Positions 6,477 through 57,620 of a stretch of DNA of 64,000 bases are shown here, piece by piece. The notes under the pieces were generated by a model. That model saw only the letters and a program-made list of their open reading frames with translations, had not been told where the DNA came from and did not search any database. The translations under genes were made by a program, and so were the position numbers. This stretch comes from a virus (lineage: Duplodnaviria > Caudoviricetes): the IMG/VR virus record IMGVR_UViG_3300020598_000119. One strand, given 5' to 3'. Each line of letters begins with the position of its first letter. Position 1 is the stretch's first letter.

Positions 6477-7121
6477 ATGACTGACGATCTGGATTTAAAC
6501 ATCTCTGTGACATCTCTTTCAGGCGCAACTCGCGCCAAAAGAAGATTTGACGCGGTTCTTACTATTGAAGACCCATTATTCCGCAACGGTCTTCGCTTTC
6601 ACAAGAAGCCGCATCCTGACCAATTGGTGCTGATGTTTGAGGATGTGGACACTTATCAAAGCACGGTCGCGATGCCCGCTATACAGCACGTTGAAGCCGC
6701 CATCAGCTTCGGACGCGAACATGCTGGTGGAAAGCTCCTGGTTCATTGCAAGGCAGGTGTAGCTCGTTCAACCGCCTTGGCGCTGGCTATCATCGCTGAT
6801 CGACTTGGCGAAGGGAATGAAGCGGCGGCTGTACGGTATCTCCTTAAGATCCGCAAAGAGTCGGCTCCCAATCTCTTCCTGCTGGATATGATCGACGACT
6901 ACCTTGAACGTGGCGGTAAATTGAAAGCCGCCTGGATGTCCGTGGAAAACGCCAGCGCTCATTACGCAGAGCATCGCAAGCTGAAGAGAGAGATGCTGGA
7001 GAAAAATCCGGCCCTTTATAGAGAGCCGTTCCATTGCCTGTCATACAGCGCTTGGCGTTATCGCCCCAATACGCTCATTCGCGAGGGCGTCATCGAGCCT
7101 ACTGCGGCTCCGAGACCCTAG
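6477..7121 (+). CDS. Cys-dependent (tyrosine/dual-specificity-type) phosphatase
   Basis: HCKAGVARS = HCX5R P-loop; upstream FED acid loop; downstream APN motif. Confidence 0.88.
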   Translation: MTDDLDLNISVTSLSGATRAKRRFDAVLTIEDPLFRNGLRFHKKPHPDQLVLMFEDVDTYQSTVAMPAIQHVEAAISFGREHAGGKLLVHCKAGVARSTALALAIIADRLGEGNEAAAVRYLLKIRKESAPNLFLLDMIDDYLERGGKLKAAWMSVENASAHYAEHRKLKREMLEKNPALYREPFHCLSYSAWRYRPNTLIREGVIEPTAAPRP

Positions 7122-8650
7122 AGACGAGGTGAAGGCAACGACTCTCCAAACTGGACAAAATCATTTTCCAGATCGGATGCATGCCTTCCCTTAATGCGAG
7201 TAGCTAATCGATCTCTGTCTATGACAGATTTCTTCGTCACCTCATTGGCCGTGTTCGACAGCGCATATAAATGCCCTGCCTCTTCATCGAATACGCCCTT
7301 GAGGTCGTCAGGGACGTTATAACCCTCATAGAGAGCCAAACGGGCACTGGCATTTTCATTCAACGAGAACTCACTCACCAACTGCTGGATTTCAAAGCGA
7401 TACCGATCTTCGACTGCCTGCCTCTGATCAGGGTCCATGCTCGCAAAGCTGATGCCGATGTTCTTGGCCACGAGCGCTGCGGACTTCATCTCGCGTTCGT
7501 TAGCGACATCACGCCCATCTTCAGAGCCAAAACGGCTAGCAGGCAACGCCACCTTCTTTGCGATCTTTGTCGCAACCGTGATGATGTCTCTCATTGATGC
7601 ATCATGCGGGACGTCAGCCGCAAAAGCCGCGCGCAAAGCCTTATGCGTCGCCTGTGCGAGCACACCGTCCTTGAGCGTGCCAGGTGTCGTATGGAAACGG
7701 CTCTGGCCGTAGTGCAGTGAAGCCTCCTTGAGATCGGCCATCTCCGCGATAACGGTGCTTCGACCACCATCACGAAGGAACAAAAGCGCAGCCGTTGCAT
7801 CTGCAAAGCAAGCAGCGATATGGCGGGCACGAGGAGAGCTTTCTACGTCCGCCTGCAGTCCTTCAGAGGCACCAAGACAGTTGTGAGCCAGGCCGAGTGC
7901 AATGGTGCGGGCTGCGCAAAACTTGCGCGTCTCATCGAGGTCCATACTCACCAGTGGGAATGCTCGACTGCCCATTGATGCGATTTCACGTCCATAGGCC
8001 GAAGGCCCCACAAACGGGGAGTATGGCAGAATGAAATTCAGCGAGATTTCCTTGTTGCCAGTGATCTCTTCCGTCACGCGGCTGCAATAAGGTTTGAAAC
8101 CAGCACGCAGGAGGACGGTCAGGTCATTCAAGCTTCTGATTGAGCCTTCCACGTCTGCAGGCAACGAGCTGTCACGAAGCGATGATGTTTCCCAATTGGA
8201 ACGAGCGACCGCCTGAACGTCAATGACGTTCAATGCAACACCTCGGCGGGCCGCCTCGTCCGTGAAGGCCCCAAGCGCCCAATTCAAATGGTCGTCCTCA
8301 CTGACTGGAGCACGCTCAATCGACACCCCCGTCCCAGGAGAAACGACTGCGGATTTCGAACGAGCCAAAAGCTTGGCGAGCATGCGTGCAGTAATGTCGG
8401 TACGGCTACCCATCATTATGATGCGGTGAGAGCCTTCCATGATCACGTCCAGAACGCTCTCACGCAGATGCATCTCAGCTTTGCCAAAATCGTCAAAGTG
8501 GAGACGTCCAACAACATCCCCGCCCATCGCAGGCTTGATATCGCCCTTGAAGGTGACATCGAGCACAGTACCATCGCGCTGAACAACGACGTATTGATCG
8601 TCATCCCGCTTGGCGCGAACGGTTCCTACAATGACCTCACCTTCTTTCAT
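7118..8650 (-). CDS. Hypothetical protein, 510 aa
   Basis: Long ORF coupled to the upstream 107-aa ORF; ends ...SLPSPRL. Confidence 0.75.
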   Translation of the reverse strand: MKEGEVIVGTVRAKRDDDQYVVVQRDGTVLDVTFKGDIKPAMGGDVVGRLHFDDFGKAEMHLRESVLDVIMEGSHRIIMMGSRTDITARMLAKLLARSKSAVVSPGTGVSIERAPVSEDDHLNWALGAFTDEAARRGVALNVIDVQAVARSNWETSSLRDSSLPADVEGSIRSLNDLTVLLRAGFKPYCSRVTEEITGNKEISLNFILPYSPFVGPSAYGREIASMGSRAFPLVSMDLDETRKFCAARTIALGLAHNCLGASEGLQADVESSPRARHIAACFADATAALLFLRDGGRSTVIAEMADLKEASLHYGQSRFHTTPGTLKDGVLAQATHKALRAAFAADVPHDASMRDIITVATKIAKKVALPASRFGSEDGRDVANEREMKSAALVAKNIGISFASMDPDQRQAVEDRYRFEIQQLVSEFSLNENASARLALYEGYNVPDDLKGVFDEEAGHLYALSNTANEVTKKSVIDRDRLATRIKGRHASDLENDFVQFGESLPSPRL

Positions 8651-8653
8651 CTC

Positions 8654-8977
8654 TTATGCTCCAAAACTCATGCCAAGCGTGCGAGGAAGTGCGTCAACCT
8701 GGTATTCCTCAGCCTGAATTTCGCCTCCAACGAATTCGCGCAGCATAAATGGGCCAGTCGAACACGATTGCTCGTAATCCTCCGCCGACATCCCGTCTTT
8801 TACGCCGTATCTGTCTCCATCAGCGCTAGTAAGGAAAAATCCGTCGTCATCGAATCCGACATTCTCGAATTTCGTTCCGCGAAGTCGTTCTGGCAGGTCA
8901 AGAATACAGACGGTGGCGTCTTTGCCGATCACGACAAGGGCGGCGTCCAGTATATTTTCAGATGTATTTTGGGTCAT
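8654..8977 (-). CDS. Hypothetical protein
   Basis: ggag RBS upstream; stop 3 nt before next ATG. Confidence 0.7.
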   Translation of the reverse strand: MTQNTSENILDAALVVIGKDATVCILDLPERLRGTKFENVGFDDDGFFLTSADGDRYGVKDGMSAEDYEQSCSTGPFMLREFVGGEIQAEEYQVDALPRTLGMSFGA

Positions 8978-9223
8978 TTCATTCTCCGGAATTCTGCAAA
9001 GTCGATCTTCTCACCATGGCCAGCAAGCAACCACCAACATTTTTAGCCGCCCAGAACCCTGAAAATGTGTTTTTCAATTATAATTGGAGGGATATTGCCA
9101 TTAAACTACGGATTAAATCGGGGGCCTGTAAAGCAATTGACGCCTAAGCTGAACCAGCGCACAATAATTCACGGGCATCAACTCCATCCAATGGCGCGAG
9201 CTACGAGGAGCCGGATAAGTCCC

Positions 9224-9254
9224 AAACCCCAGCACCTTGAGAGCTGGGGTTTTT
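9224..9254 (+). terminator. Intrinsic terminator closing an orphan leader-like segment
   Basis: aaaccccagc-accttgaga-gctggggttttt. Confidence 0.7.
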
Positions 9255-11325: not shown

Positions 11326-12351
11326 GTGCCGCAGAAATTTTTGGTTAGAGTCACCCATGGATCGCATTTGTTCGGAACCAACACCGAGACGTCCGATATG
11401 GACATCAAGTCGGTAGTGCAGCCGAGCGTCGAACAAATTCTTCTGGGCAAGGTCAATTGGTCGAAGGCCGTTGGCGCTGATGACTCGCGCGCAAACACAA
11501 AGGATGATGTCGATGACGAAAGACACGATCTTCTGCGCTACATGCAATTGCTGACAACTGGGCAGCCGATGGCGCTCGAAATCCTGTTTGCGCCCGATCA
11601 GTTCCATATTGGCGACACCCATCCGGTTTGGCGTGAGCTGCAAGCCAATTCTGACCTGCTTATCTCGCGCAAGTCTCAGAAGTTTCTTGGCTATTGCCGT
11701 CAACAGGCCACGTCTCACGGTCTCAAGGGCGAGCGTCTGGACGCGGCCCAAAAGGTGCAGGTCATCCTTGACCGACTGGTAAAGGAAGAGGGACCACGCA
11801 AGGTGCTCGGTGCCTATCTCCATATGATCGTCGCTGAAGTGAAATCACCTCACGTGTCGGAAGTGTTCCGAAAGACCGTCGACGGCAAGGAATTGAGCCA
11901 TCTGAAGATCTCAAACAAGCTTGCTGCGGCGACCATCGAATTGAAGGACGCAAAGGATATCTGCGATAACGTCGTTCAAAACTACGGTCGCCGTGCTCGC
12001 ATGGCTCAGGAAGGCCAGGGTAAGGACTGGAAGGCTCTCAGCCACGCATTGCGCATTGGCTACGAAGCTCTCGAACTATTCGAGAAATCCTTCATCACCT
12101 TTCCGCGTCCAGAAGCGGCTTATCTGCTTGCAGTGAAACAGGGCAAGGTGGACCCCGATGTCGTCGGGAACGAAATTGAAGACCTTCTCTATAAGGTGGA
12201 AGAAGCGTCTGAAAATTCGTCGCTACCCGAAGAAGCAGACGTCGCGTTCATGAACGAAATGGTCATCAAGAACTACGGTGAAGCAGTCTTTGAGGCCTAC
12301 TCCGTTAATCAGGAAAACACCGAAGAAGACGCACTGCTGCCCACTATTTGA
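11326..12351 (+). CDS. Pol-beta superfamily nucleotidyltransferase (RlaP / phage-type)
   Basis: GSHLFGTNTETSDMD = GS..DxD motif; C-terminal DWKALSHALRI and LLAVKQG helical domain; GTG start with aggag RBS. Confidence 0.85.
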   Translation: MPQKFLVRVTHGSHLFGTNTETSDMDIKSVVQPSVEQILLGKVNWSKAVGADDSRANTKDDVDDERHDLLRYMQLLTTGQPMALEILFAPDQFHIGDTHPVWRELQANSDLLISRKSQKFLGYCRQQATSHGLKGERLDAAQKVQVILDRLVKEEGPRKVLGAYLHMIVAEVKSPHVSEVFRKTVDGKELSHLKISNKLAAATIELKDAKDICDNVVQNYGRRARMAQEGQGKDWKALSHALRIGYEALELFEKSFITFPRPEAAYLLAVKQGKVDPDVVGNEIEDLLYKVEEASENSSLPEEADVAFMNEMVIKNYGEAVFEAYSVNQENTEEDALLPTI

Positions 12352-12409
12352 AACTTTCTTGAAGAGCAGTGATTTTAAACAAGGATCGCTGCTCTTTTGG
12401 ATATCTATA

Positions 12410-13510
12410 ATGCGCATTAGGAAGCCGAGTTTTCATCTGGATTCATTTCGAAATACTCCCCGTATTTTCGAAAACGATATTGCTATCTGCCTATCTTCGC
12501 CTGCAGTTCAAGACATCTTGATTGAAGCATCCAAGAAGCATTTCGCGGCCGCATTCCAGAATGACAGAAGCCAGTTTAGCAAATCGCTCGCCAATCAGGT
12601 TGCATCCACTCTCTTTAAAACCGCCGACAAAGAGAAAGCGCTGTCCCATATTAAGCCCACAACCGTGTCGGAGGAATTACGAGCTGAGTGGAAGGCAGAG
12701 ATAAAAAACAGCCGAGCCTTTCATCTCGTCAATGACGCAATGGTCGACATTCTTCGTCGGCTTCATCCAGAAAAATCCATCAACGAGATTTCTGAGGTGA
12801 CATCGGAGGCAATTTCCGACGCCACCATCGAAGCAGGCAGGTCCCACGACCTCAGTCGACCGATTGATGCGGTCAGAGGCATCACCACCATTTGCGCGTA
12901 TGTGCCCCTGCCCGATGGTCAGACAGATCCAACCGAGGTATGTACAGCATTCTGGTCAGAACGGAGCAGCTCGACGACGATCAAGCCAAGCGGGGCGTTT
13001 CTGGAGTTCCTGAAACTGACCAACATATCGACTGACGAATGGAAGTCCGCCGTTCTCGAAATTCATGATCTCGATCTCGGTGGAGAACTGGATGACGACG
13101 CATTCACATTCGAAATCGAGCGAAAACAGATATGGGAGACGGTCCAACAGGAAGCCGACGACACCAGGCCGTCGCTAGTCGACGTCGAGGATCTGGTTTA
13201 CGCCATCGATAATTGCCCGTTCGGCTTCACCCCTCTGGTGTCCTTCAGCATGCCCATTGAGGAGATCGTTCATAGGGATTGGAACACGCCAATCAAGGTA
13301 ACAGGCGGCATTCTTGGTCTTCATGACTTCATCAATGGGAGTGGCGATCCCTTGCGATTTGAAGGCGAAATCGAACTGTCACCGACGATTTCGAACATGG
13401 TGGCTGCAGGCGCACGGGCGAACGACATTGCGTCGGTGCATGGCTTTGTAGATCAAAGTTTCAAATCATTCGTTGAAGACATCACGCCTGAGCGTGGCTT
13501 GACCATGTGA
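12410..13510 (+). CDS. Hypothetical protein
   Basis: Long ORF; start moved to ATG 12410 to avoid overlap with the upstream gene. Confidence 0.7.
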   Translation: MRIRKPSFHLDSFRNTPRIFENDIAICLSSPAVQDILIEASKKHFAAAFQNDRSQFSKSLANQVASTLFKTADKEKALSHIKPTTVSEELRAEWKAEIKNSRAFHLVNDAMVDILRRLHPEKSINEISEVTSEAISDATIEAGRSHDLSRPIDAVRGITTICAYVPLPDGQTDPTEVCTAFWSERSSSTTIKPSGAFLEFLKLTNISTDEWKSAVLEIHDLDLGGELDDDAFTFEIERKQIWETVQQEADDTRPSLVDVEDLVYAIDNCPFGFTPLVSFSMPIEEIVHRDWNTPIKVTGGILGLHDFINGSGDPLRFEGEIELSPTISNMVAAGARANDIASVHGFVDQSFKSFVEDITPERGLTM

Positions 13511-15467: not shown

Positions 15468-16442
15468 ATGAATTTCGCTGGATGCTCCAAATTCGTTTTC
15501 TCCGACCTCGTCGTTTTACGTCAAAAGCCCAACGGAGACTGGGAAGGCTCATATGTGGAGGGCGACATTGTTCAATATTCAGATGAGCAGCTGAATAACG
15601 CGATTTGCGTAGTTCCAGAAAACGAAGAAGGCATCGGGATGTGGGCGGTTCGTGACCCGTTCCGCAATGAACCGATCCGTTATTCCATCGACTTCGAAAA
15701 GAAAGTCGTTAACATCGAGGGCGGCTCCCGTCCAATGCCGCTGGAGGAATTCCAAAAATCCGCTATTCGCGTCACCGACGACGGTAGGTCGCTCTGCTCA
15801 TTCATGCAGACTTTGAATGACCAATATGCTGCCTGCCACGGCGTCTCAGGTGCCGAGATGCACATAATCGATATCGGCATGACGGCCCAGCAAATGCGCG
15901 ACTCAGACAAGGTCGAAGACAAATACAATGTTGGCATGTTTGACATTGTATCGAGCGATCTTCGTGACGGCTTATCCTTTATGGATCTCATGGCCAAAAT
16001 TAATGCCAAAAACGCGCCGACTTACGAGAGCCTTGGCCTCAAGGACCTCTATTCCGACCATCATGAAGGAAGATGGTTCGAAATCAGAGAGAATCCTCGG
16101 TTCATGGTCGAACAAATTCGCGCGCTATTCGGCTCTTATATGGAAAACCTTCTGGACGGCTTCCCCATCGAACGTGTCTCGTGCCTGCAACTGCCTGCAG
16201 GTCAACCTCTGGCTATGTTTATCGAAGAGCATGCCGATCTGGTCTCACAAGACGCACCTTTTGAAGGGGGGAACATCATCCCTGGATACAGGACATCTCC
16301 TATCGGTCACTACCGTGGATACAACGACGAGAAGGATGAGCATTTCGATGTCATCGTCTTCTCAGACTTCATGGGCACCTACGCCTACGCATGGCCAACT
16401 CCTGAACAGCTGAAACTTCAAAACAGAGCGCCAGGAATGTGA
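15468..16442 (+). CDS. Hypothetical protein
   Basis: 324-aa ORF, coupled to the LPD gene; ends ...NRAPGM. Confidence 0.75.
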   Translation: MNFAGCSKFVFSDLVVLRQKPNGDWEGSYVEGDIVQYSDEQLNNAICVVPENEEGIGMWAVRDPFRNEPIRYSIDFEKKVVNIEGGSRPMPLEEFQKSAIRVTDDGRSLCSFMQTLNDQYAACHGVSGAEMHIIDIGMTAQQMRDSDKVEDKYNVGMFDIVSSDLRDGLSFMDLMAKINAKNAPTYESLGLKDLYSDHHEGRWFEIRENPRFMVEQIRALFGSYMENLLDGFPIERVSCLQLPAGQPLAMFIEEHADLVSQDAPFEGGNIIPGYRTSPIGHYRGYNDEKDEHFDVIVFSDFMGTYAYAWPTPEQLKLQNRAPGM

Positions 16443-16457: not shown

Positions 16458-18218
16458 ATGTCTGAACCCACAAAACCGAACAAAATCGAAGACGCTGGCG
16501 AATTCATTGCGGGTGCCCGCAAGGACTGGCACATCAATGCAATGACGCGAGCTGACGTCGAATCCATGACGGACGAAGAAGTTGTTCTCCACGTCAAGAA
16601 AGACAACATTTGGCCAAAGCCCGATTATGAGCAGATGGTCGAAAACGGCATGGAGCCGAAGGCGGCCGCGCTGGTTAAGATCATACGCGACCAGATGGCT
16701 CAACAGCCTCGTGCTTGGCCCGGTGTTGAACCAATGGCTGGGCGCAAAGCCTTCGTAGATCTGGTTGGTCTTGTCAGAGACATGGCGGTTGCATGCAAAA
16801 CCGTCCAAGACGTTTTGGATATCTATCGGCGATACGAAGCCCACGCCAAGGAAAAGAGCCTCGGCAATAAAAAATGGGTGATCTACAAGACCAGGAGCAC
16901 CCCACTCTCTCTGGGCTGGTCGGATGTTGTCAAAGCGGAGGATATGATCAAGGCAGGTTTCCCAGCCAAGGAAAACGACTGGAAGCGCAACATGAAGGTC
17001 GTAAGGGGCTGGGGCGGCGGCTTCACTCTCTTGCGCTCCAAGAAGGTGCTGAAGAGCGGCTTCGAAAGCGAAGATGCTGCATGGGAATGGGCAAAGGAGA
17101 ATGCCACCAAGCGCGCTGCCAAGAAGGACGGCGAGAAGATTGAACCAAAGCGCCCTCACCTCGACAGGCTAGAACGTATAGGTCTTACTTACGACCGTGG
17201 TGATCAAAACATTACGCCTGAGGATTTTCTGGAAACGTTCGGCTTCCGTGGCGTTCAGTTCGGAAATTGGCTCCCAAATGCTGAGCGCCAGCAGGTTCTG
17301 AACCTCGGCTACGAGGCATTGATGGACCTTGCTGAAGTCATGGGATGGGAACCAAAGGCACTCTCGCTTGATGGCACGCTTGGCCTGGCGTTCGGCGCAC
17401 GTGGAAGCGGAAGATACGCCGCCCATTACGAACCAGGTCAGCGCGTCATCAACATGACAAAGCTCTCTGGAGCCGGGTCACTTGCTCATGAATTCGCACA
17501 TGCGCTCGATCACTGGCTGGGCACGGGCACTCCAGTGCAAGTACCAGGTGGCATTCCATCTGCGACTGGGTGGAACATTCCTGGCAACGAGCCTAAAAGA
17601 CTCATACCGCATCGCGCCGAGGCCGTTGGCGACGCGTGTAGCAACACGATGAAGTCGATCTATAAACGCCCTCTCACGAAAGAAGAGATAATTGAAAGGC
17701 TGACGACAAGCTTCCAGAATTACTCGAAAGAGATCGAAAAACACGAAACCTCGATCAAAAATATAATTGAAAATGGGCTTGAAAGAACGAACAAGAAGTA
17801 CCTCAAGGAAGTCGGTCCATGGCTTGATAGCAGAAGGGCGCGAGCTAAGCACGTCGAGGACATGATTGCCCGGATAAACGACGGGCGCGTTACCGATTAC
17901 GGAGAAGGCGACAGCAATTACTACGTCCAAGCCCAGAAACTATGTGGTTCGTCAGACTACTATAGACGTCCGAACGAACTCTTTGCTCGCGCCTTCGAGG
18001 CATGGGTATTCGACGAGATTCGCGAGAGAGGCGGATGCTCAGACTACCTCGTCCACGGGGTGGAAGATGGTCGTTACGCGAGCGATGACTACAAGGGCGA
18101 TCCCTACCCTTCGGGCGACGAGCGCAAGACCATCAACGAGCACATGCGAACCATCGCAGAGACAGTGAAGCCTGAGGCGGAACTCAATCTTGAGACTAGT
18201 GCCGCCCCTCGCATGTGA
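16458..18218 (+). CDS. Large polyvalent protein-associated (LPD5/LPD1) protein with zincin-like metallopeptidase motif
   Basis: KIEDAGEFIAGARKD, FGFRGVQFGNW, AHEFAHALD (HExxH), ELFARAFEAWV..YP. Confidence 0.85.
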   Translation: MSEPTKPNKIEDAGEFIAGARKDWHINAMTRADVESMTDEEVVLHVKKDNIWPKPDYEQMVENGMEPKAAALVKIIRDQMAQQPRAWPGVEPMAGRKAFVDLVGLVRDMAVACKTVQDVLDIYRRYEAHAKEKSLGNKKWVIYKTRSTPLSLGWSDVVKAEDMIKAGFPAKENDWKRNMKVVRGWGGGFTLLRSKKVLKSGFESEDAAWEWAKENATKRAAKKDGEKIEPKRPHLDRLERIGLTYDRGDQNITPEDFLETFGFRGVQFGNWLPNAERQQVLNLGYEALMDLAEVMGWEPKALSLDGTLGLAFGARGSGRYAAHYEPGQRVINMTKLSGAGSLAHEFAHALDHWLGTGTPVQVPGGIPSATGWNIPGNEPKRLIPHRAEAVGDACSNTMKSIYKRPLTKEEIIERLTTSFQNYSKEIEKHETSIKNIIENGLERTNKKYLKEVGPWLDSRRARAKHVEDMIARINDGRVTDYGEGDSNYYVQAQKLCGSSDYYRRPNELFARAFEAWVFDEIRERGGCSDYLVHGVEDGRYASDDYKGDPYPSGDERKTINEHMRTIAETVKPEAELNLETSAAPRM

Positions 18219-20785: not shown

Positions 20786-23785
20786 TTACATCTTCATGGC
20801 CATAATTTCCTGAACCAGCTCCTCGATGATGCCGGATTCAGCTTCATCCTCGGATGTGCCGCCGCGCTCCATCATTACCGCGACTCGTCGTTCGACCTCA
20901 CTCTTGGCGGAACCGTTTTTAAAGCGAATAGATAGACGCCTTCTGGCTTCAACGGCACCAAGCAAATCATAGAGACGATTACGCAGAGCAACGTCTTCAG
21001 CCGTCGTCGAGAATGCCCAGATTTTGGTAGGCCCAAGCGTATTGATCAACAGATGTTCGTGATGGCCTTCCTTGAGCTTCAGGACTGCAAGGAATGGAGC
21101 GCCGCCCTCACGAGGGCCGTTGAGGCGGCTGCGAACGATTGCGGTGCTGGTCTCGTTGAGGCCAAATTGCCGTTGGGTTTCGATGACGGCACGTTCGGTG
21201 CCGACGCCCAAAATCCAGTGCCCAGTCGCCATGTCAATCATGTTCTTATCGAAGTCTTCGAGCATCTGCGACGCAAGGCAGATATGCACGCCGAACTTGC
21301 GGCCTTCGCGCATATCGATCATGACCTGAGCGCGAACGGCTTCCGAGTTAGAAGTACGGTGGAATTCGTCATAAACGATGCGCTTCGGGGTTTCCTTAAT
21401 ACGCCTGATACGAGGAATATGGTAAGGGCGATAGTCCTCAGGAATGTCGCTGATGATATCAGGATTAAGATAATAATCGCGAGCCAGAACAAATCGCGCC
21501 AGCATATACATCAACGCTGTCTGCTTGTCGGCAGGACCACCACCCTTTGGAGCCACTTCGTCAAGATCGAGCGCGACTACCCGAGCTTCACCGATATCAA
21601 AATTGGTCGGACGTTGCAGGATCGGATATTCACGAATTGCGCTATTTATAATACGAGCTGCGACCTCAACGACCTTTTCGGTCGTCATTGTCTTTGCCGA
21701 ACCATGGATGTCCGTGATCTGATCGTCAAATAGAATAGCCTGAAAATCTTCGATGCGAGGAACGGCATGACGTTGAGCCAACATTGCCGTATGGGTGTCG
21801 CCTCTTTTGTAGAGTTCGTCAACGATTTCCCACCAACTGGTGACGCCTGGCTGATACGGGATGGCATAATTGCTGATCGCACGGTCGACAGCACGAGAAA
21901 CATTCGCATTGTAGCGCTTCGGTGATCCTTTACGGCTACGATCACTGTATTTCTCGTAGACGGCGTCGATAGCGACGCTGAGAATACCCGCCAAACCTTC
22001 TGGAGCACGTTCCGCTCCAGGCTCTGTTCCAAGCGTTGTCAGAAAGTTCAGAAGGAACGACTTTTCCAGAGGCAAGAGTTTACGGCAACCAAGCTGGGTG
22101 TCGCATGGATTGATCGAATGCTCATGATCCATTCGAAGGCGCTTGTAGGCGACCTCGTGCTTTCTATTTGGCGGCAGAGCTTCCTGCAAAACGGAAATCA
22201 GACCGTGAGAGGAAGGGCCGATATCGATGATCGCGATACGCGGTAGCTGGGCACCACCCGTTCCAGTCGTCGACGACGGCGAGAGACAGAGTGCCAGATT
22301 GATGGTGTTCATCAAAACCGACTTACCCTTGCCTGGAGGAGCAAAGATCAGGTCGATGAAGGTGTCCTGAAGCGAGGAACCAGGATGATACGGCCAAGGA
22401 CGGCCATCAGGAGTTCTGAACAGAACCGAGCCATACCTCCAAGGAGATGCGTCGCGGTTCCAAGGCAACATCGCGATGACGTCAGGCAACGGAACTGCAC
22501 CAGCTGGGGCCGTGGAACCGACATCCAATCCGAGGGTTGTAGACATGACTGCCGCCATCGGATCACCGACCAGCGGAGAAACATGGCAATAGCCCCACGC
22601 TTCTACTGAACGCTGAAGTCGCGCAGCGCGTTCTTCAATCGTCCGCAAACCATTTTCACCAACATCGGCCCAAGTCGCGAACGAAACTCGGAACTTCGTT
22701 ACGGTGGTTCCGCTCTGTCGTTCAGCCTTCAAGGCCTTGATGGCTTCGTGAATCTGGCGATTGTCACTGTTCGTAATCTGGAAAACCGACGCAAGGAATG
22801 CCTTGACGTCCATCGACCGTAGCCCCTCGCCTTCGATCATGAAGGAGACACGCCATGGGAATTCGTCCTCAAGCATGCGATTGAGAAGATGACCAAAGGA
22901 CTGCGTTTCCTGCGGTCCAATGACCATGTCCATGCCAGCAAAATATTTTGAGCCGAGCTGGACTATTCGAGGCGATATACGCACCCCTTCTCGGTCAAAA
23001 ATCTGTTCTTCCAATCGCGGCCACATCAAATGAGACGCATCGTAGTCCGAAAATTCCGGAGTACGAATATTTATAGTAGTACCTGGAATAGCTGGCTTCC
23101 AATCTGCCCCGACGAGGTCTGGGTACACCGACCACTTCATGACTTTAATAGCTTCCTTCGTCTCAAGGACAGCTGCACGAAGCTGCATTTGCCTAAGATC
23201 GCTGACGAAATTGCGCACGAACGATCTATGACGATCCTTGATGGCACGGCTGACACGCGTAAAATCCTGCGCGTCGGCGAATGATGGCATCATCTTTGGG
23301 GGCACCAGATCGGCGCGAGCGTTCTCGGATTCCTTTTTGGTCAGAATGGACAATCGAGTCCACAGAACCATGTAAAACCCTTCCCAAACGACGTGCTTTG
23401 GCAAAGTCGTTTCTTCGGAATGGAACAGATCGTCCAAATCGAGGCCGAGCTTCTTTGCCACTCCACGGCTAGGACGAACGAGGTCCTTGACCATCTGGGT
23501 AGCGAGATCTGGGTCACGGCAGAACCAAACCTGAATGGAATGCCCCTCTCTGCCTAAATAAGGAGACATTTTAAGGTTCATGTCGTGAATAATGGAATCC
23601 AGTTCCTCGTCGCCAATAATTCGCTGGATACCATCGATACGAACGACCGATGCCATCGAACCATCTTTCCCAATCAGGATGTCCTCACCGTCTGCGGTCT
23701 CCAAAAAACAGAATGAAGACAATGGCTTCTTCGTAAGACTATCGGAGGCAGACCTTACGCTGGAAAGGAAACTAGTTAGTGACAT
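20786..23785 (-). CDS. icmB: Type IVB secretion ATPase IcmB/DotO (TraU-like)
   Basis: ~1000 aa; CFLETAD, FRTPDG..WPY.PGS, APPGKGKSVLMN, IAIIDIGPSS, YDEFHRT, WAFSTTAED..LRN match the IcmB/DotO family. Confidence 0.9.
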   Translation of the reverse strand: MSLTSFLSSVRSASDSLTKKPLSSFCFLETADGEDILIGKDGSMASVVRIDGIQRIIGDEELDSIIHDMNLKMSPYLGREGHSIQVWFCRDPDLATQMVKDLVRPSRGVAKKLGLDLDDLFHSEETTLPKHVVWEGFYMVLWTRLSILTKKESENARADLVPPKMMPSFADAQDFTRVSRAIKDRHRSFVRNFVSDLRQMQLRAAVLETKEAIKVMKWSVYPDLVGADWKPAIPGTTINIRTPEFSDYDASHLMWPRLEEQIFDREGVRISPRIVQLGSKYFAGMDMVIGPQETQSFGHLLNRMLEDEFPWRVSFMIEGEGLRSMDVKAFLASVFQITNSDNRQIHEAIKALKAERQSGTTVTKFRVSFATWADVGENGLRTIEERAARLQRSVEAWGYCHVSPLVGDPMAAVMSTTLGLDVGSTAPAGAVPLPDVIAMLPWNRDASPWRYGSVLFRTPDGRPWPYHPGSSLQDTFIDLIFAPPGKGKSVLMNTINLALCLSPSSTTGTGGAQLPRIAIIDIGPSSHGLISVLQEALPPNRKHEVAYKRLRMDHEHSINPCDTQLGCRKLLPLEKSFLLNFLTTLGTEPGAERAPEGLAGILSVAIDAVYEKYSDRSRKGSPKRYNANVSRAVDRAISNYAIPYQPGVTSWWEIVDELYKRGDTHTAMLAQRHAVPRIEDFQAILFDDQITDIHGSAKTMTTEKVVEVAARIINSAIREYPILQRPTNFDIGEARVVALDLDEVAPKGGGPADKQTALMYMLARFVLARDYYLNPDIISDIPEDYRPYHIPRIRRIKETPKRIVYDEFHRTSNSEAVRAQVMIDMREGRKFGVHICLASQMLEDFDKNMIDMATGHWILGVGTERAVIETQRQFGLNETSTAIVRSRLNGPREGGAPFLAVLKLKEGHHEHLLINTLGPTKIWAFSTTAEDVALRNRLYDLLGAVEARRRLSIRFKNGSAKSEVERRVAVMMERGGTSEDEAESGIIEELVQEIMAMKM

Positions 23786-23874
23786 ATTCAATCCTAATTA
23801 CGACGAATTATCCATTTAATACATTGTCGAATAAGGACTATTCGAGGTCAAGAATTAAAGGACAATCGCCGAAA

Positions 23875-30249: not shown

Positions 30250-30456
30250 TTAACGACGTGGGCTAGGTGCTGGAGGCGTCAGCTCATATGTTTCGTCGTT
30301 TGTTGGAACTGGAGCTGGAGTCAGCTCGTTCAGCTGGGTCAAGGCATCGCCAAGGTCTCTGACCTGATCGGCTGCCATAAACGGAAGTCCAAAAATATCG
30401 CCGAGAATACCACCCTGTTCGACCCTATTTCCGTATGCTGGAGTTACGTTTTCCAT
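30250..30456 (-). CDS. Small hypothetical protein
   Basis: aggaga RBS; ends ...PPAPSPRR. Confidence 0.6.
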   Translation of the reverse strand: MENVTPAYGNRVEQGGILGDIFGLPFMAADQVRDLGDALTQLNELTPAPVPTNDETYELTPPAPSPRR

Positions 30457-30545
30457 TTCTTTCTCCTAGATGCTTGCCTGGAACTGTTGCAAGATGTTCA
30501 ATTAATAGAACTATCTTCAAGCGAAATGTCGCAAGGAACAAGCGT

Positions 30546-32343: not shown

Positions 32344-32349
32344 TCGAAA

Positions 32350-33291: not shown

Positions 33292-33315
33292 TTATTGGAT
33301 AAAAGGAGGCATATA

Positions 33316-34542: not shown

Positions 34543-34588
34543 TTGGAGGGAAATTTCCGTAAAATTGCCATAATAGGAGACTGCATAA

Positions 34589-35784: not shown

Positions 35785-37443
35785 ATGCCCGATTTATTCG
35801 TTATTGAGGCCCCAGGAAAGGCCAAGCACATACAGGAAATTCTAAAGAGCGTCGGCATCGACGCTCGTGTGCAAGCGACGAAAGGGCACCTCTACTCAAT
35901 GCCCGACAGGCTGACCCCTGTCGGGATCGACAGCGGATTTAGAGAATTCGAGCGCAAATTGCGTGAGCCTGAAATCGGCCAGCGAATCCGCGACGAAGCT
36001 GCAAATGCAGAACGCGTATTTATCGCAACGGACGCCGACGAAGAAGGCGACGTAATCGCATGGGACGTGGCAGAATTAATCGCCGATATTCAAGCACACC
36101 CACTGAGAGTTCGCCTGAGGGGAATGGATGAAGAGTCCGTCCTGGAATCTATCGAGGGCGCATCTAATGTTCTCAAGCGAGATGCCATTGCTGGCAGGAC
36201 GCGAGCCATCGTGGATCGAATGATCGGCTCGGTCTTTTCACGCGACGGGGTCGCTGTCGGCCGTGTTGGCACTGCTCTTCTCGGATTGGTTCAAAAGGAA
36301 CAGCCGCCTGTCGTCAGGCTTCGCCTGGTGGCTCCGGCCAAGGAAGGCCGCCCATGGGTCGCAGACTGCGACGTAAAGGCCCCTCTCGACTTCCAGACCG
36401 CCAAGAAGCTTGAGGCCGTGCGTTTTCCTGTTCTGGACGCTTCTGAGCGCAGCGAACGCTCCCAGGGCCGCCCAGGCAACCTTGGAGACATCATGGTGAG
36501 CGCGGGCGACAAGATGGACATGTCGCCAAAAGAAGCCGCCACCTCCATGCAACGCCTTTATGAGGCAGGAAGAGTGTCGTATCCACGCGCCAACTCTCGC
36601 GGCATCTCCAGATCAGTCCTGCGCAAGGTCGCCAAGGCCCTCCAGAAGTCTGGCTACAAGTTCGATGAGAATGTCATTCCCGACAAGCCCGACACTGACG
36701 TTCACGACGCTCCATACCCGATTGGTCGTACCGAAATCGCACGTGATCCAGTTAAGCAGGGACACGACGAAGGCCTTCGCACTCTCATCGCCCGAGACAT
36801 GATCAAGAGCGGCCAGGTTCACGAGCTTCAGTTTGGCGTTGGCGAGCGGGCTGGCACCCATCTGAAGAAGCTAGGATTCAGTGAAGAGGTCGCGACCTAC
36901 GTATCGAACCTGGAATGGCGTCGGGAAATTGGCCCGCAGTACCCCGGTCAGGAAACTTGGCCAGAGAGCAAGGTTACCGTTCGCCGTGCCGACACAGTGC
37001 TTTTGCAGCATGCAGTCGAAGCTGGACTGGGCAAACCATCGACCTGGGCAAACCACATCGACAAGTTCATGAGCCGGGGCCTCGTCGACGAGGATCTCAA
37101 CCTGACTCGCAAAGGCAAGGAATGGATCGCAGCCAGCCCCCCTGCCCTTCTCGACCCGCGCATCTCTGCCGCCATCGAGCAAGCCTGTGATCGCGTCCTG
37201 AAGGGAATGATGGACGATCCAGACCGTGAGCCATGGGAAATCCTCTCGGAAAAAATCATCAACGCACTTCCGGATCAGCTGAAAAAGCCTTTGATGAACG
37301 CCGTTGAGAAAACACCCCCTCATCCGAAACCAGACCCAATTGCTCCATACAGGGAAACGGTCGGTTTGGAGAACATCCTCGAAAACGCCAAGGACAGGGC
37401 CTTCAATTACGGCCCACGTGGACCAGAAGCTCCATCCCAGTAA
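35785..37443 (+). CDS. Compact type IA DNA topoisomerase
   Basis: TOPRIM IEAPGKAK, ATKGHL, ATDADEEGD; MQRLYEAGRVSYPR catalytic Tyr; GLGKPST; no Zn ribbons. Confidence 0.88.
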   Translation: MPDLFVIEAPGKAKHIQEILKSVGIDARVQATKGHLYSMPDRLTPVGIDSGFREFERKLREPEIGQRIRDEAANAERVFIATDADEEGDVIAWDVAELIADIQAHPLRVRLRGMDEESVLESIEGASNVLKRDAIAGRTRAIVDRMIGSVFSRDGVAVGRVGTALLGLVQKEQPPVVRLRLVAPAKEGRPWVADCDVKAPLDFQTAKKLEAVRFPVLDASERSERSQGRPGNLGDIMVSAGDKMDMSPKEAATSMQRLYEAGRVSYPRANSRGISRSVLRKVAKALQKSGYKFDENVIPDKPDTDVHDAPYPIGRTEIARDPVKQGHDEGLRTLIARDMIKSGQVHELQFGVGERAGTHLKKLGFSEEVATYVSNLEWRREIGPQYPGQETWPESKVTVRRADTVLLQHAVEAGLGKPSTWANHIDKFMSRGLVDEDLNLTRKGKEWIAASPPALLDPRISAAIEQACDRVLKGMMDDPDREPWEILSEKIINALPDQLKKPLMNAVEKTPPHPKPDPIAPYRETVGLENILENAKDRAFNYGPRGPEAPSQ

Positions 37444-42861: not shown

Positions 42862-44271
42862 ATGTCAGACCTCGTTTTCTATGATACTGAAGCTACGGAT
42901 GCAGACATCCGCCACGGGCAAATTACGCAATTTGGCGGTTTAAAGACTGATCTGGACTTCAATATCAGTGAAGAAATCAATTTCCGGGTTAAGCGGCTTC
43001 CATGGGTAGTGCCATCGCCAACGGCTTTGACCGTCACTAAAATGCAAGCCAGAGACCTCGATAACGAGGACGGTGTTTCCGAATATGAAGCTGCACGCAA
43101 GATGGAAAAATTTCTTGTTCCTGGATATGGACAGGAAAGGACATTGGTAACATTTCGCGGACCTTCATTCGACGACGAATTGATCCGTACAACTCTCTTC
43201 AGAAATCTGAATAATCCTTGGTTTTCATCAGGAAAAAAGACATCAAAGCTGGATGTATTCCATCTTGTTCGTCTGGCAAAAACGCTCAATGAGAACGCCT
43301 TAGAAGTCCCAATGGGAGACGAGGGCAAGCTTACCTGGCGATTGGAGAAACTTTGCGAGGCAAACGGCATCCAACTTGACGCACACGATGCCTTGGCTGA
43401 CTCGTATGGAACACTCGAAATCGCGGCTCTTGTTCGCAACACTACACCGAATGCTTGGCACACTTTGATGCGCTGCGGCCTTCCTGCACGGCAAGAAGAA
43501 CTGCTATCGGGCGCATATAGGAACGGCAAACCTCTGCTGTTGTTCCAATTTTTCTCAGAAGCAAAAGTTATTCCTTGCGCAGTCTTGGGAACAAACGACC
43601 AGAAAGGATGGATTCTAGCTGATCTCAGAGCAGAAAACATACCGGATATGGTCGACGACATAAGGGCGACCTTGTTCACCAAAGACACGCCGTTCCCGAT
43701 TGTCAAAAGCAACATGGCTCCGATTTTCTTGGACGAAACGACTGCGAGAGCAATCGATCCATCCATTGACACCAAATCAATAATCGCGAAAGCCAAAGAA
43801 ATCAAGGGGGGACGTTTAGCTGAACAGGCAGTAGAGGCATACAGAGGCCATGCGCATCCACGCCTCGAAAACATGACTTCGGAAGAAAAGATCTATTCCG
43901 GCTTCATCAGCGACAAAGATAAGCCCTTGTTAACTTCATTTCATCGGGCAGATACATGGGAAAAGAAATTGGCGATAAATTTCACAGACGCCCGCCTAAC
44001 GGATTTCAAGGCGCGCATTCTGCTAGACGCCTACTATTCCAATAAGGCTTCATTCCATGAAGAAGATGTGGCCATGCTGCGAGAACAATGCGCAGAGGCT
44101 CTTGATCGCCCATTTGCTGAAGCGAATTCACGCTTCATGACAATCAAGAAAGCGCTCGAAATAGGTGTTCCTCGCGATTGGGCGGACTGGGCAGAAGAGG
44201 TTTTCGATTATAAAATCGAGCCATCATGCGTGCTGGAACAAGAGGGGGATCAGTTGCAGATGTCCTTCTAA
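42862..44271 (+). CDS. sbcB: Exodeoxyribonuclease I-like DEDDh 3'-5' ssDNA exonuclease
   Basis: VFYDTE, QITQFGG, PSP.A, FDDELIR, RLEKLCEANGI..AHDALAD, EEKIYSGF. Confidence 0.85.
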   Translation: MSDLVFYDTEATDADIRHGQITQFGGLKTDLDFNISEEINFRVKRLPWVVPSPTALTVTKMQARDLDNEDGVSEYEAARKMEKFLVPGYGQERTLVTFRGPSFDDELIRTTLFRNLNNPWFSSGKKTSKLDVFHLVRLAKTLNENALEVPMGDEGKLTWRLEKLCEANGIQLDAHDALADSYGTLEIAALVRNTTPNAWHTLMRCGLPARQEELLSGAYRNGKPLLLFQFFSEAKVIPCAVLGTNDQKGWILADLRAENIPDMVDDIRATLFTKDTPFPIVKSNMAPIFLDETTARAIDPSIDTKSIIAKAKEIKGGRLAEQAVEAYRGHAHPRLENMTSEEKIYSGFISDKDKPLLTSFHRADTWEKKLAINFTDARLTDFKARILLDAYYSNKASFHEEDVAMLREQCAEALDRPFAEANSRFMTIKKALEIGVPRDWADWAEEVFDYKIEPSCVLEQEGDQLQMSF

Positions 44272-52777: not shown

Positions 52778-52950
52778 TTTTCGACTCCCTACGCGATTGT
52801 TTCCTATCAGATTACGCGCAAATGCTATTTCGAACTTTTTGCAGCTCTCGTCAATGGGGAGCGAAAAATATCATTAAGAGAATTTAGACTTTGGAAATTC
52901 CAATGCCTATGTGACCATGTGTGAAACACACAGATTTGTTTGGAGTTCGT

Positions 52951-53562
52951 ATGCTTGGAAAATTCAAGGTCCGGAAGGATCGCGTTCTCGTTGTTGATTT
53001 CGAATTGACCTGCTGGGAAGGCCAAGCGCCTGAGGGCGAGATGGCGGAGATTATCGAAATTGGTCTCTCAGAGGTAGACGTCGAGAGACTAGAGATCAAG
53101 AAGACAGATTCGTATTTGGTGAAGCCGGAATATTCAACCATCTCGGAATACTGCACTAATTTGACGGGGATCACACCGCAACGCATGCGCAAGCAGGGAA
53201 GGCCGCTTGTTGATGTAGCCAATACCCTGAAAAAGAACTGGGGGTCTGCTTCAAAGGCATGGATGGCTTGGGGGAATGACCGCGAAGCCATAATAATCGA
53301 CTGCATGCGGAAGCAGATCGAAAACCCCTTTTCCGAGGCGTACCACAACATTGGCCAGCAATTCAGCATGATGGTTGGTGCGACATCCTCAATCGGCCTC
53401 AATAAAGCTTTTGAGATGATGGGGATTGAACGAACAGGCACTGCTCACACAGCTGGAGGCGATGCGGAAGATACAGCCTGCCTGTGGGTGCATCTGACAC
53501 AACGAATTCGCTCTGAATTGTTCCCGTCAGACAATTTTGAGATTCAAACTCCGTCGCATTAA
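52951..53562 (+). CDS. DEDDh 3'-5' exonuclease (ERI-1/KapD-like)
   Basis: VVDFELTCW, EIIEIG, CTNLTGI, AWGND, HTAGGDA. Confidence 0.88.
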   Translation: MLGKFKVRKDRVLVVDFELTCWEGQAPEGEMAEIIEIGLSEVDVERLEIKKTDSYLVKPEYSTISEYCTNLTGITPQRMRKQGRPLVDVANTLKKNWGSASKAWMAWGNDREAIIIDCMRKQIENPFSEAYHNIGQQFSMMVGATSSIGLNKAFEMMGIERTGTAHTAGGDAEDTACLWVHLTQRIRSELFPSDNFEIQTPSH

Positions 53563-55068: not shown

Positions 55069-55069
55069 A

Positions 55070-55456: not shown

Positions 55457-55484
55457 AAAAAGGCAGGTTAAAATGACCTGCCTT
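55457..55484 (-). terminator. Terminator after pilin-like gene
   Basis: aaggcaggt-taaaatg-acctgcctt with A-tract (U-tail on the minus strand). Confidence 0.7.
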
Positions 55485-55496
55485 ACATAATCAAAC

Positions 55497-55982: not shown

Positions 55983-56026
55983 TTTGCTATTCCTTATCTT
56001 ATATAAATAGCACCTCACCTAACAAT

Positions 56027-56062
56027 TTTGGGGAGGGACGGTTTTGCCGACCCTCCCCAAAA
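56027..56062 (-). terminator. Terminator between the two pilin genes
   Basis: tttgggaggg...ccctccccaaaa inverted repeat. Confidence 0.55.
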
Positions 56063-56078
56063 TCCAGCCCAAATCAAA

Positions 56079-56588
56079 TTAGAGCGGGAAACCGAAGTGC
56101 GTAGCGGCAGTACCGTCAGTTGTCGAAGAAACGGTACCAGCAGTGCTGTCAGCAGTTACACAAAGTCCATTTTGCTTCAGAACTTCGCCAGTCTCATCGA
56201 CATCTGCAGTTGCAGCATCATCAGCGCGGCAGAGTTCTGCAGCTGCAGTTCCCTTGAATGCTACTACTGCATAAAGCTTGCCATCAGAGGCTGCCGCAAT
56301 GTTCCATGCCCCATCAGCGATCTTACCAGCAGTTGGAGCCTGAGCAAGGAAGCCACCCGACACAAGATCGTCAATCGGAGTTTCACCAGCACCAGTTGCA
56401 ACAGCAACACCATGCTCAGTCTTGTACAAGGCAGCCGCACCAGCAATCTGCTGTCCCTGGTTGATGAGCGTGGTAACGTTGGCCTTTTCCGAGGACTTCG
56501 TGAATGCGTCGCCGCCGTAGAAAATCGAAGCGATAGCGAGAGCAGCGATAAGGGCGATGGAGATGACGGCTACAATAAGCTGAAACAT
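56079..56588 (-). CDS. Probable major pilin (leaderless)
   Basis: MFQLIVAVISIALIAALAIASIFYGG...NQGQQIAGAAALY...LVSGGFL; Cys pair; ggaagga RBS; own terminator. Confidence 0.82.
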   Translation of the reverse strand: MFQLIVAVISIALIAALAIASIFYGGDAFTKSSEKANVTTLINQGQQIAGAAALYKTEHGVAVATGAGETPIDDLVSGGFLAQAPTAGKIADGAWNIAAASDGKLYAVVAFKGTAAAELCRADDAATADVDETGEVLKQNGLCVTADSTAGTVSSTTDGTAATHFGFPL

Positions 56589-57053
56589 GATTATTCCTTC
56601 CTGAATAGGCTAACAATTAAGCCTGATGATGTTTCTTGCCGGGGCGGTTTCTTTGTTTTTGTCACCCTGACAGCTTAAGAATTCGCCCCATTTTAATCAC
56701 CGTCAAGCGCTCAAATCAGTATTTATATCGCTTCTAAGCCGTTGATTTTGTAAAACATAATCGTCGTCTAAGTTGGTCAACAAATTTCACTTACATTTTT
56801 TTCTGAACATTTCTGTAAAATGACTTTTATCGGCGTTTTTTATCTGGAAAACACGCCGACAGAAACAAATGACCGACCTCGGGTTGCGGCACACGCATTC
56901 CGGCGTTTTCTGATTGAAAAGATATCTTTAAGGCGGATTTTGATCCGCTAAAGGTTCTTGCTGCCTCCTGCCTCTGACTGGACGATGACAATTTGCCATT
57001 TCCGCTATGCAGGCCGACAAACAACAATCGTATGGATCAATCGGAGCTACTCG

Positions 57054-57620
57054 ATGAACAGAAATGCAGGATTTACGCGACCAGGCATACCAGCCGCTCG
57101 TACTCGACACAGCTCCGAGGTCGAAACCAAGATCGAAGAGCTGGCTACAATAATCAGGCCTTTCCTCAAGGACGATTGTTTCGGATGGATTTCTCCATCA
57201 GGAGACATTCATACCGTCCTCAGCCACGGCCATCTTGATTTCTTCGAACACTACAATGGCACCGACAAACCCGAAGACCTCGACATCTATTTTAGCCTGG
57301 CAAAGCAAGATTTGGACGAGAAGGCTGACAAATGGCTGAAGGATGCTGGGGATGCTCATCCCTGTTGGCACATCTTCTCGTGTCATTATTCATTCGAACC
57401 GGGTGACGAAATTCAAAGCGCGTTCTTGGCCAAGGCCTACGAAAAAGGCTGGGGCCGCATTGGAACATTCGACGGCGATAAGATCGAACTAGAATGTTTT
57501 GGCGAATGCAAGCGCGTTCTGCAGCGCCATGCTCAAGAACTGGCAAAAATGACGGGCCGATCTCTTTTGATCACAGTGATAGAACCGCCACCAGAGATAA
57601 AGCAATCATTCGCACCATAA
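57054..57620 (+). CDS. Hypothetical protein
   Basis: GWISPSG..H..GH and GWGRI motifs; start uncertain. Confidence 0.68.
   Translation: MNRNAGFTRPGIPAARTRHSSEVETKIEELATIIRPFLKDDCFGWISPSGDIHTVLSHGHLDFFEHYNGTDKPEDLDIYFSLAKQDLDEKADKWLKDAGDAHPCWHIFSCHYSFEPGDEIQSAFLAKAYEKGWGRIGTFDGDKIELECFGECKRVLQRHAQELAKMTGRSLLITVIEPPPEIKQSFAP

Follow-up and report, generated by a model that had tools for sequence, protein, structure and literature searches.

Substrates of the Dot/Icm systems for type IVB secretion (T4BSS) of Legionella and Coxiella carry C-terminal signals that are read in part by DotM of the DotL-DotM-DotN complex (PMC3052360, PMC5802825, PMC7251119). Described features of these substrates are an E-block and small residues at positions -5 to -11 (PMC3052360), to which the same paper, citing Nagai 2005, adds that position -3 or -4 is hydrophobic. 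DotM, a receptor of acidic tails, is universal among T4BSS, and its co-evolution with tails of other types is possible; IcmSW, by contrast, is confined to Legionella, Coxiella and Rickettsiella (PMC5802825). Type IVB signals are diffuse: the prediction of substrates in Legionella relies entirely on machine learning, and how the receptors DotM and IcmSW work is understood only in part. The DNA analyzed here is a 64,000 nucleotide stretch of the IMG/VR record IMGVR_UViG_3300020598_000119 (termed the window), in which many unrelated proteins end in the same short tail, commonly with proline at the third position from the carboxyl end, i.e. Pro(-3). The replicon to which it belongs encodes a Dot/Icm-type T4BSS, and the tail is probably a recruitment signal of that system.

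The window corresponds to approximately positions 820,200-884,200 of G001:C2 (here C2), at 94-100% protein identity. C2 is a 1,189,113-bp contig of Mesorhizobium sp. SP-1A with 51% GC, uniform at 49-52%, and the host DNA of the same genome has 65% GC, with 63-66% in a 400-kb stretch of the largest contig, C1. C2 was the test replicon for the tail statistics and the 400 kb of host chromosome (328 proteins) the control. Genes were called by self-trained codon scores on open reading frames (ORFs), which gave 1163 genes on C2, 328 in the host stretch and 54 in the window. The C-termini are fixed by frame and stop codon alone and are independent of start calls. With a similarity of 94-100%, the window and C2 are too close to reveal selection on the tails.

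The first-pass annotation of the window proposed Pro(-3) as the shared tail and called for its count on the replicon against the host. On C2 proline is found at -3 in 131 of 1163 proteins (11.3%), where 51 are expected (p=3e-22; expected residue counts are derived from positions -11 to -40), and neighbouring positions are near background. The host stretch has 18 in 328 (5.5%). The enrichment is strong. Pro(-3) makes up a single column of a broader pattern, however, and is not the whole signal. Met(-1) is present in 97 C2 proteins, with 26 expected (p=3e-27), and the host chromosome displays neither the Pro(-3) nor the Met(-1) pattern. Also enriched on C2 are Lys, Arg and Ser at -2, Ser and Thr at -4, Pro at -5, and, in place of Pro at -3, Met or Phe. 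From -2 to -4, acidic residues (Asp and Glu) are excluded. Among the Pro(-3) proteins, Ala(-4) is found in 31%, one of M, P, L or F at -1 in 66%, and Glu(-8) in 20%. The full motif reads [DE]-block(-7..-13), [ASGT](-4), [PMLF](-3), [KRSG](-2), [MPLF](-1)-COOH, with small residues over -4 to -6. The consensus of the last eight residues is [ED]-x-x-[PSA]-[ASGT]-[PMLF]-[KRSG]-[MPLF]-COOH, which is close to A-P-[KR]-M-COOH.

Modelling the final eight residues of the C2 proteins as a mixture of two components assigns the tail to 206 (posterior >0.9) to 275 (>0.5) of the 1163 proteins; the corresponding numbers for the host are 2 and 12 of 328. The tails are real, and they are carried by about 18-24% of the replicon proteome, not by a handful of cargo proteins. 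The fitted frequencies at -3 are P 0.37, M 0.17, L 0.13 and F 0.13. At -2, K, R, S and G together account for 0.77, and Ala is unfavoured at both -1 and -2.

The motif is strictly terminal. The model matches 17.7% of C-termini and 0.88% of internal 8-mers of the same proteins, and the unfitted pattern [ASGT][PM][KRSG][MPLF] terminates 60 C2 proteins, which is 59x its internal rate, and no host protein. Overall, the motif is 19-59x commoner at the C-terminus of C2 proteins than internally. The pattern P[KRSGT][MPLFI] occurs 74 times at the exact end, but only 20, 24, 8 and 3 times when shifted inward by 1, 2, 3 and 4 residues, and the motif is therefore locked to the carboxyl end.

The tail also correlates with features beyond the eight fitted residues. 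Only 5.3% of carriers have a transmembrane-like segment, compared with 26.4% of non-carriers (p=6e-13). Asp and Glu at -9 to -13, outside of the fitted window, average 1.38 residues per protein in carriers and 0.76 in the others (p=1.5e-16), and their frequency at -7 to -12 is 0.23-0.37 in carriers and 0.12-0.16 in other proteins. Carrier tails are net acidic at -9 to -13 (+0.86 acidic vs +0.07), and basic residues are favoured only at -2. An acidic or disordered stretch had been noticed before several window tails; the tail follows disordered, acidic linkers of soluble proteins, and in RecD2 it is at the end of a disordered linker.

If the tail had no function, the pattern would stem from base composition, from the context of stop codons, from paralogy or from errors in gene calling. 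In favour of this, the genes were called in-house and the motif model was trained on the data that it describes, and TGA is somewhat commoner as the stop codon of Met(-1) proteins (54% vs 41%). The motif, however, is lacking on the host chromosome and inside the same proteins, and it correlates with features outside of the fitted window, as shown above. Paralogy was rejected as a cause by all-against-all BLAST of the C2 proteins, in which 180 of 1003 families carry the tail. A cause at the DNA level, i.e. a repeat, a terminator or a ribosome-binding site that overlaps the stop codons, was rejected also. Four window genes with [AS]-P-R-x ends, AAPRP, SPRL, AAPRM and SPRR, write the Pro-Arg pair as CCG AGA, CCT CGT, CCT CGC and CCA CGT, respectively. 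The Pro(-3) codons mirror general usage and the stop codons are varied, which places the signal in the peptide and not in the DNA. With so many unrelated families and such varied codons a by-product is very improbable, and the data from relatives given below argue against it further.

In the window the nine Pro(-3) tails that had been quoted were all found at the genes named, from six-frame ORFs and from the DNA at each stop codon. Pro(-3) terminates 9 of ~55 window proteins, where ~2.5-3 are expected (binomial p ~0.001), and a motif posterior >0.9 is reached in 10 of the 54 called genes. The DSPc-like phosphatase (214 aa; 6477..7121, + strand) ends ..IEPTAAPRP, with tail codons at 7095-7118 and a posterior of 1.00, and the same tail is present in C2. 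A 510-aa protein with no family match (7118..8650, - strand) ends ..GESLPSPRL (tail codons 7121-7144; posterior 1.00). These two tailed genes converge, and a palindromic CTAG forms a 4-bp overlap of their stop codons at 7118-7121. The RlaP-type nucleotidyltransferase (341 aa; 11326..12351, + strand) ends ..EEDALLPTI (posterior 0.95); its ortholog in the relative L083 has lost the motif. A 324-aa protein with no family match (15468..16442, + strand) ends ..LQNRAPGM, and the 586-aa LPD1-domain protein (16458..18218, + strand) ends ..LETSAAPRM, both with a posterior of 1.00. The RecD2-like helicase (880 aa; 23875..26517, - strand) ends ..EPEEEPLHPKF and a conserved 68-aa protein (30250..30456, - strand) ends ..TPPAPSPRR (posterior 0.99).

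The other two quoted tails fit less well. The 552-aa Toprim/topoisomerase IA-like protein (35785..37443, + strand; ..GPEAPSQ) is a weak match with a posterior of 0.40, and the 213-aa RNase T-type exonuclease (52921..53562, + strand; ..FEIQTPSH) a moderate one with 0.77. Since the motif is wider than Pro(-3), two ends that had been listed as near-misses are counted as members. These are ..ITPERGLTM of a 410-aa protein with no family match (12278..13510, + strand; start codon uncertain), which has Leu(-3) in place of Pro and a posterior of 1.00, and ..PPEIKQSFAP of a 220-aa protein with no family match (56958..57620, + strand), which has Phe(-3) and Pro(-1) and a posterior of 0.91. A third near-miss, SSSPK, does not fit. 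Two further window carriers had not been listed. One is the ExoX/T-like exonuclease (469 aa; 42862..44271, + strand), which ends ..EQEGDQLQMSF (posterior 0.97). The other is the 1001-aa IcmB/DotO ATPase of the type IVB system (20786..23791, - strand), which ends ..EIMAMKM. IcmB had been named as tail-free but fits the motif; PyrG, LigA, FtsH, PilB and PilC are indeed without the tail, as are ArgRS, GapR, MucR and RecQ.

Families were compared with Pfam for 150 carriers and 150 soluble non-carriers of C2. Carriers match only 38 Pfam families, led by PcfJ (8), ART-PolyVal (5) and AbiEii (3). Metallophos, NUDIX and AAA_33 are found twice each, and LPD1, NADAR, HipA_C, DprA, T4 RNA ligase and RecD2 once each. 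Soluble non-carriers match 89 families with resident functions, such as Trp- and Tyr-tRNA synthetases, Hsp70, SmpB, RtcB and ScpB, and also JetA, CD-NTase, SIR2, MucR and dUTPase. Domains of polyvalent-protein and toxin type are over-represented among the carriers. The families concerned were described by Iyer and colleagues as fused in "polyvalent proteins", for which delivery together with the DNA by conjugation machines has been proposed (PMC5512222). The F plasmid's type IV secretion system (T4SS) moves the plasmid proteins ParA, ParB, SSB and PsiB into recipients (PMC8406263).

The non-tail set of the replicon includes what resembles a cell-like maintenance kit (its own Hsp70, SmpB, RtcB, Trp- and Tyr-tRNA synthetases and dUTPase) and several defence systems, i.e. 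Wadjet JetA, CD-NTase, SIR2 and a type I restriction-modification S subunit. Carriers are spread over the replicon with the exception of C2:300,000-400,000, where only 3 of 108 genes encode tailed proteins. In this region approximately three quarters of the genes are on the minus strand, the median protein of the first half is 141 aa, and dotM and icmT are included. This may be a separate module, distinct in its origin or its function.

Close relatives were taken from metagenome and Logan contigs. The tails are under selection: they are kept in orthologs across 51-64% GC, which also argues against a by-product of base composition. The RecD2 tail is kept in five of six syntenic orthologs at 36-47% identity, with the ends PKF, PRF, PRP, PKF and PTP preceded by an acidic block. 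The window sequence ends ..EEEPLHPKF and those of relatives ..DDDLPSPRF, ..EETPEGPRP, ..EEEVSAAPKF and ..NEVESQGPTP, and the linker before the tail cannot be aligned. Among 120 RecD2 homologs from databases, 49 have Pro(-3) and 51 have a motif score >0.9, and Pro878, which is the -3 residue, is a column of >=90% conservation in a 58-sequence alignment. The fold predicted by AlphaFold has high confidence at positions 1-755, and positions 756-877 are coil with pLDDT <50. From this prediction the tail appears to terminate a flexible linker of 125 residues. Other orthologs behave similarly. At 47% identity, those of the 324-aa protein and of the LPD1 protein end ..NPQAPGM and ..KTVTPAL, and orthologs of the 68-aa protein end ..PPAPKFGM, ..PPAPRFM, ..PVPGMRM and ..PRAPGM.

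In some lineages the RecD2 encoded next to icmB has another tail: Rhizobium, Sinorhizobium and Pararhizobium have ..NPFSSPFKR, other lineages ..PFRMP[SN]RG, and a third clade has ..LQRAVTTPVR. These are all within the same syntenic T4BSS block (loci L219, L220 and L221; proteins P0149-P0209). At the loci with a replaced RecD2 tail, other genes end ..PGMRM, ..MAPRP, ..AGPRL and ..RAPGM. The lineage-specific tails may offer a handle on co-evolution of signal and receptor. The tail of IcmB itself (..EIMAMKM) is kept only in the closest relatives.

The same signature is found de novo in Thalassospira xianhensis. This species has IcmB (52% identity) and DotL on a 158-kb contig of 51% GC. A 423-kb contig has the same GC content and as many homologs of C2 proteins per kb, and the contig with rpoB has 55.6% GC; contigs of 51-52% GC total at least 580 kb. 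The two separate low-GC contigs (158 kb and 423 kb) were pooled, giving 521 genes. A positional test of these finds Pro(-3) in 61 proteins with 24.8 expected (p=2e-10) and Met(-1) in 35 with 11.3 expected (p=7e-9). Enrichment is seen also for P at -1 and -5 and for S at -4, D and E are depleted at -1 to -3, and the acidic block at -9 to -13 is present. The Mesorhizobium-trained model matches 12.1% of the C-termini and 0.93% of internal sites, and the unfitted [PM][KRSGT][MPLFI] occurs 26 times at offset 0 and 9, 15, 6 and 4 times when shifted 1-4 residues inward. This independent occurrence argues against a pattern without function.

The proposal that the element encodes a type IVB system is correct, and the system is a genuine T4BSS of Dot/Icm type. 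IcmB shares 42-45% identity, over its full length of ~980 aligned residues, with IcmB of Legionella, Coxiellaceae and Rickettsiella (tblastn to Legionellales loci), and its homologs are named IcmB/DotO by JGI and UniRef. IcmB and its neighbours have no Pfam or NCBIfam match, and IcmB has no match in a phmmer search of PDB. The DotL ortholog is an 892-aa protein at G001:C2:920027-922705 (- strand), which matches IcmO (PDB 6SZ9_A) at E 1e-158 over residues 21-616 and has TrwB_AAD_bind and TraG-D_C above cut-off. The DotM ortholog (G001:C2:388690-389880) matches IcmP (PDB 6SZ9_B; E 2.5e-16). A basic residue, Arg or Lys, aligns with each of R197, R217 and R314 of the Legionella protein, which are among the five residues that were mutated in PMC5802825. 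DotN/IcmJ (1081749-1082477), IcmE, IcmK, two IcmL, IcmT, IcmF and IcmH are also present on C2 (tblastn or phmmer against Legionellales loci). The T4BSS machine parts on C2 are without the tail.

The last 275 residues of the DotL ortholog, which end ..LLQDEDD, are unrelated in sequence to Legionella DotL. In Legionella the C-terminal region of DotL binds DotN, IcmSW and LvgA. The adaptor set here is therefore probably different. Gene order in the block 30435-35773 of the window is kept in all relatives, and this block probably holds further, very divergent T4BSS parts. A 415-aa protein within it (33295-34542) has no Pfam match, and its positional counterparts in the relatives L083 and L085 have a TraW-like match (PF28212).

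With the hydrophobic residue at -3, the E-block and the small residues of the tail, together with the presence of the machine, we take the tail to be, most likely, a C-terminal recruitment and translocation signal of the replicon's own Dot/Icm-type T4BSS. This reading is the best supported and slightly more likely than not, but it is circumstantial, on the basis of co-residence and of resemblance to the Legionella signal. We infer that the reader would be the coupling complex DotL-DotM-DotN. The acidic block would dock on a basic surface of DotM, as in Legionella, and the terminal P/M-x-M/L/F-COOH would make a second, sharper contact. Consistent with this, the DotM-binding Legionella peptide CegC3 (..EESSRFTM; PMC5802825) has a score of 1.00 with the C2-trained model. 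The tagged proteins would then be exported through the T4BSS. Their target could be a recipient bacterium, which they would enter along with DNA as establishment and counter-defence factors, or it could be another target cell, a competitor or a eukaryote.

Several observations weigh against recruitment by the T4BSS. Compared with the fuzzy Legionella signal, the motif is much sharper and confined more strictly to the terminus, which would also suit a different kind of peptide-binding domain, approximately 200 substrates would be unprecedented for a plasmid-borne T4BSS, and the link between tail and machine is one of co-residence and resemblance. The RecD2 tail is replaced in some clades that share the T4BSS block (..PFSSPFKR, ..TPVR). 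The host control for Thalassospira is only 15.7 kb. In Methylobacterium hispanicum (69% GC), Pro(-3) is found in 15% of proteins of the T4BSS contig and 9.7% of those of a host contig, a difference that is not significant. IcmS was not found with Legionella feeleii IcmS as the query against all C2 ORFs of >=60 aa. The first-pass annotation had invoked IcmW as a substrate adaptor; the 152-aa ORF beside icmB is not IcmW-like, as it has no match to the IcmW chains of PDB at E up to 10 (IcmW was not used as a query). Nor does the gene content favour the delivery into recipient cells that was suggested, which presumes conjugation. C2 has no relaxase of the families PF03432, PF08751, PF03389 and PF07514, a search that did not cover other and novel relaxase families, and a Bosea relative is typed as non-mobilizable (PLSDB), so that DNA transfer, and with it "recipient cells", is unsupported.

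The relaxase-family matches and VirD4-type coupling proteins of G001 are on contigs other than C2. Either the replicon has a relaxase of a novel kind or its T4BSS is not used for DNA transfer. Linear Rhizobiaceae plasmids that bear dot/icm genes have been described, with no relaxase on six sequenced plasmids and one relaxase annotated on a related plasmid from GenBank mining (preprint 10.1101/2025.05.29.656789).

A strictly C-terminal tail, exposed on a disordered end of soluble proteins, is also what is expected of a degradation tag. Such a tag, read by the element's FtsH or by a host AAA+ protease, would keep many of the element's proteins, several of which are toxic, short-lived in the carrier cell, and the toxin-type domains AbiEii, HipA and ART are indeed among the carriers. 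The element-encoded FtsH (18286-20121), itself without the tail, adjoins tailed genes, and it is located in the same place in L083. In L084 and L085, however, the conserved block of T4BSS genes does not include FtsH although RecD2 still has its tail, and no ClpP, Lon or S41 tail-specific protease was found on the replicon. Known bacterial C-terminal degrons are non-polar, e.g. ..LAA of ssrA. The tail differs from these in having K or R at -2 behind an acidic block, and a turnover tag on a fifth of the proteome would be costly. A degron is thus considered unlikely.

Strict anchoring to the carboxyl end is typical also of peptides bound by PDZ- or TPR-like readers. The tail could instead dock proteins onto a hub inside the carrier cell that has no part in secretion, such as a chaperone, a scaffold of the replisome or nucleoid, or a peptide binder of Sel1/TPR type, and element proteins would thereby be collected in one place. 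An acidic linker followed by terminal hydrophobic residues is found in the C-terminal tails of SSB and of phage T7 gp2.5 and gp4, which the tail resembles. The element encodes Sel1-repeat and Hsp70 proteins, and DNA or RNA is the substrate of many carriers. A replisome or nucleoid hub predicts, however, that resident DNA-associated proteins have the tail, and the opposite is seen, with LigA, RecQ, GapR, MucR, ScpB and ParA all tail-free. The activities of the carriers are unrelated (kinases, ADP-ribosyltransferases, NUDIX proteins, phosphatases) and no candidate reader has been identified. Docking of this type is regarded as improbable, and recruitment by the T4BSS remains the preferred explanation.

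A megablast search with 24 kb gave no match among plasmids. The LPD1 protein has a counterpart in a single genome of the 401 examined for the family, and IcmB has one in eight of the 401 examined for the order, all of them distant. The closed relatives identified by IcmB are a 1.32-Mb plasmid of Rhizobium leguminosarum, the 1.26-Mb megaplasmid of Methylorubrum extorquens AM1 and Bosea plasmids of 0.7 Mb. The accessions of closed relatives are NZ_CP140867.1, NC_012811.1, NZ_CP016463.1 and NZ_AP022849.1. The window's gene order is preserved on contigs whose IcmB homologs have 57-69% identity. On pBSY19_1, a closed Bosea plasmid, the tail is present on RecD2 and on three or four of its neighbours. 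In literature searches, no publication was found that describes this replicon family or a tail of this sort.

A broader proposal is that a family of low-GC replicons of 0.6-1.3 Mb in Alphaproteobacteria (Mesorhizobium and Thalassospira, with relatives in Rhizobium, Bosea and Methylorubrum) export approximately 200 of their own proteins, marked by a near-consensus tail, through a Dot/Icm-type machine, and that these are aimed at other bacteria and not at eukaryotic hosts. This is put forward tentatively, as a possibility somewhat short of even chance. If it is true, the replicons would have an effector repertoire on the scale of that of Legionella, built of unbundled "polyvalent-protein" enzymes and toxins, and bacteria would be targeted either for establishment after DNA transfer or for killing. 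It would also give a purpose to the Dot/Icm systems on giant alphaproteobacterial replicons and would turn the injection of counter-defence enzyme batteries by mobile elements into a list of named, testable proteins. The tail would be the first sharply defined T4BSS signal that can be predicted from sequence. A sharp, conserved and strictly terminal tail on ~200 proteins, together with orthologs of DotL, DotM and DotN, would offer a clean peptide-receptor pair in bacteria that are culturable and non-pathogenic.

As in the Dot/Icm signal, the tail is at the extreme C-terminus of soluble proteins and is exposed and unstructured (as predicted for RecD2), with Pro or a hydrophobic residue at -3 that is preceded by small residues and, further upstream, by an acidic block. 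Here also there are hundreds of unrelated carriers, and orthologs of DotL, DotM and DotN are on the replicon. The tail is, however, unusually sharp and numerous for a signal of known kind. It is much sharper than the Dot/Icm signal and is fixed to the last residue, Pro dominates -3, and Met, Pro, Leu or Phe at -1 is equally strong. The acidic block is at -7 to -13, compared with approximately -10 to -17 in Legionella. Unlike Legionella, no IcmS was found. The Dot/Icm systems of intracellular pathogens also differ in setting, as the machine here is on a megaplasmid-like replicon of free-living or symbiotic Alphaproteobacteria, and the carriers are conflict and nucleic-acid enzymes rather than the eukaryote-like proteins typical of Dot/Icm effectors.

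The Sog primase of IncI1 plasmids is a protein transferred by a conjugative type IV system. Conjugative transfer of proteins resembles the present case in that DNA-handling and counter-defence proteins encoded by the element are thought to enter the target through its own T4SS. It differs in that no relaxase was found here. Elements with polyvalent proteins share with this replicon LPD1, ART-PolyVal, primase/PrimPol neighbours and a RecD2-like helicase. Polyvalent proteins are giant fusions, whereas here the domains are mostly on separate small proteins, each with its own tail, with ~200 candidates.

The tail is distinct from ssrA-like degrons in that it is not non-polar, with K, R, S or G at -2 accounting for 0.77 and Ala unfavoured. 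The VirB/VirD4 (type IVA) substrates of Agrobacterium have a positively charged, Arg-rich C-terminal signal. This signal too is short, unstructured and C-terminal, and a Pro-Arg pair is present in some of the tails (..APRP, ..SPRL). However the last ~15 residues are net acidic here and there is a single favoured basic residue, at -2. In addition, the coupling protein of the replicon is of the DotL type, and VirD4-type proteins are encoded on other contigs.

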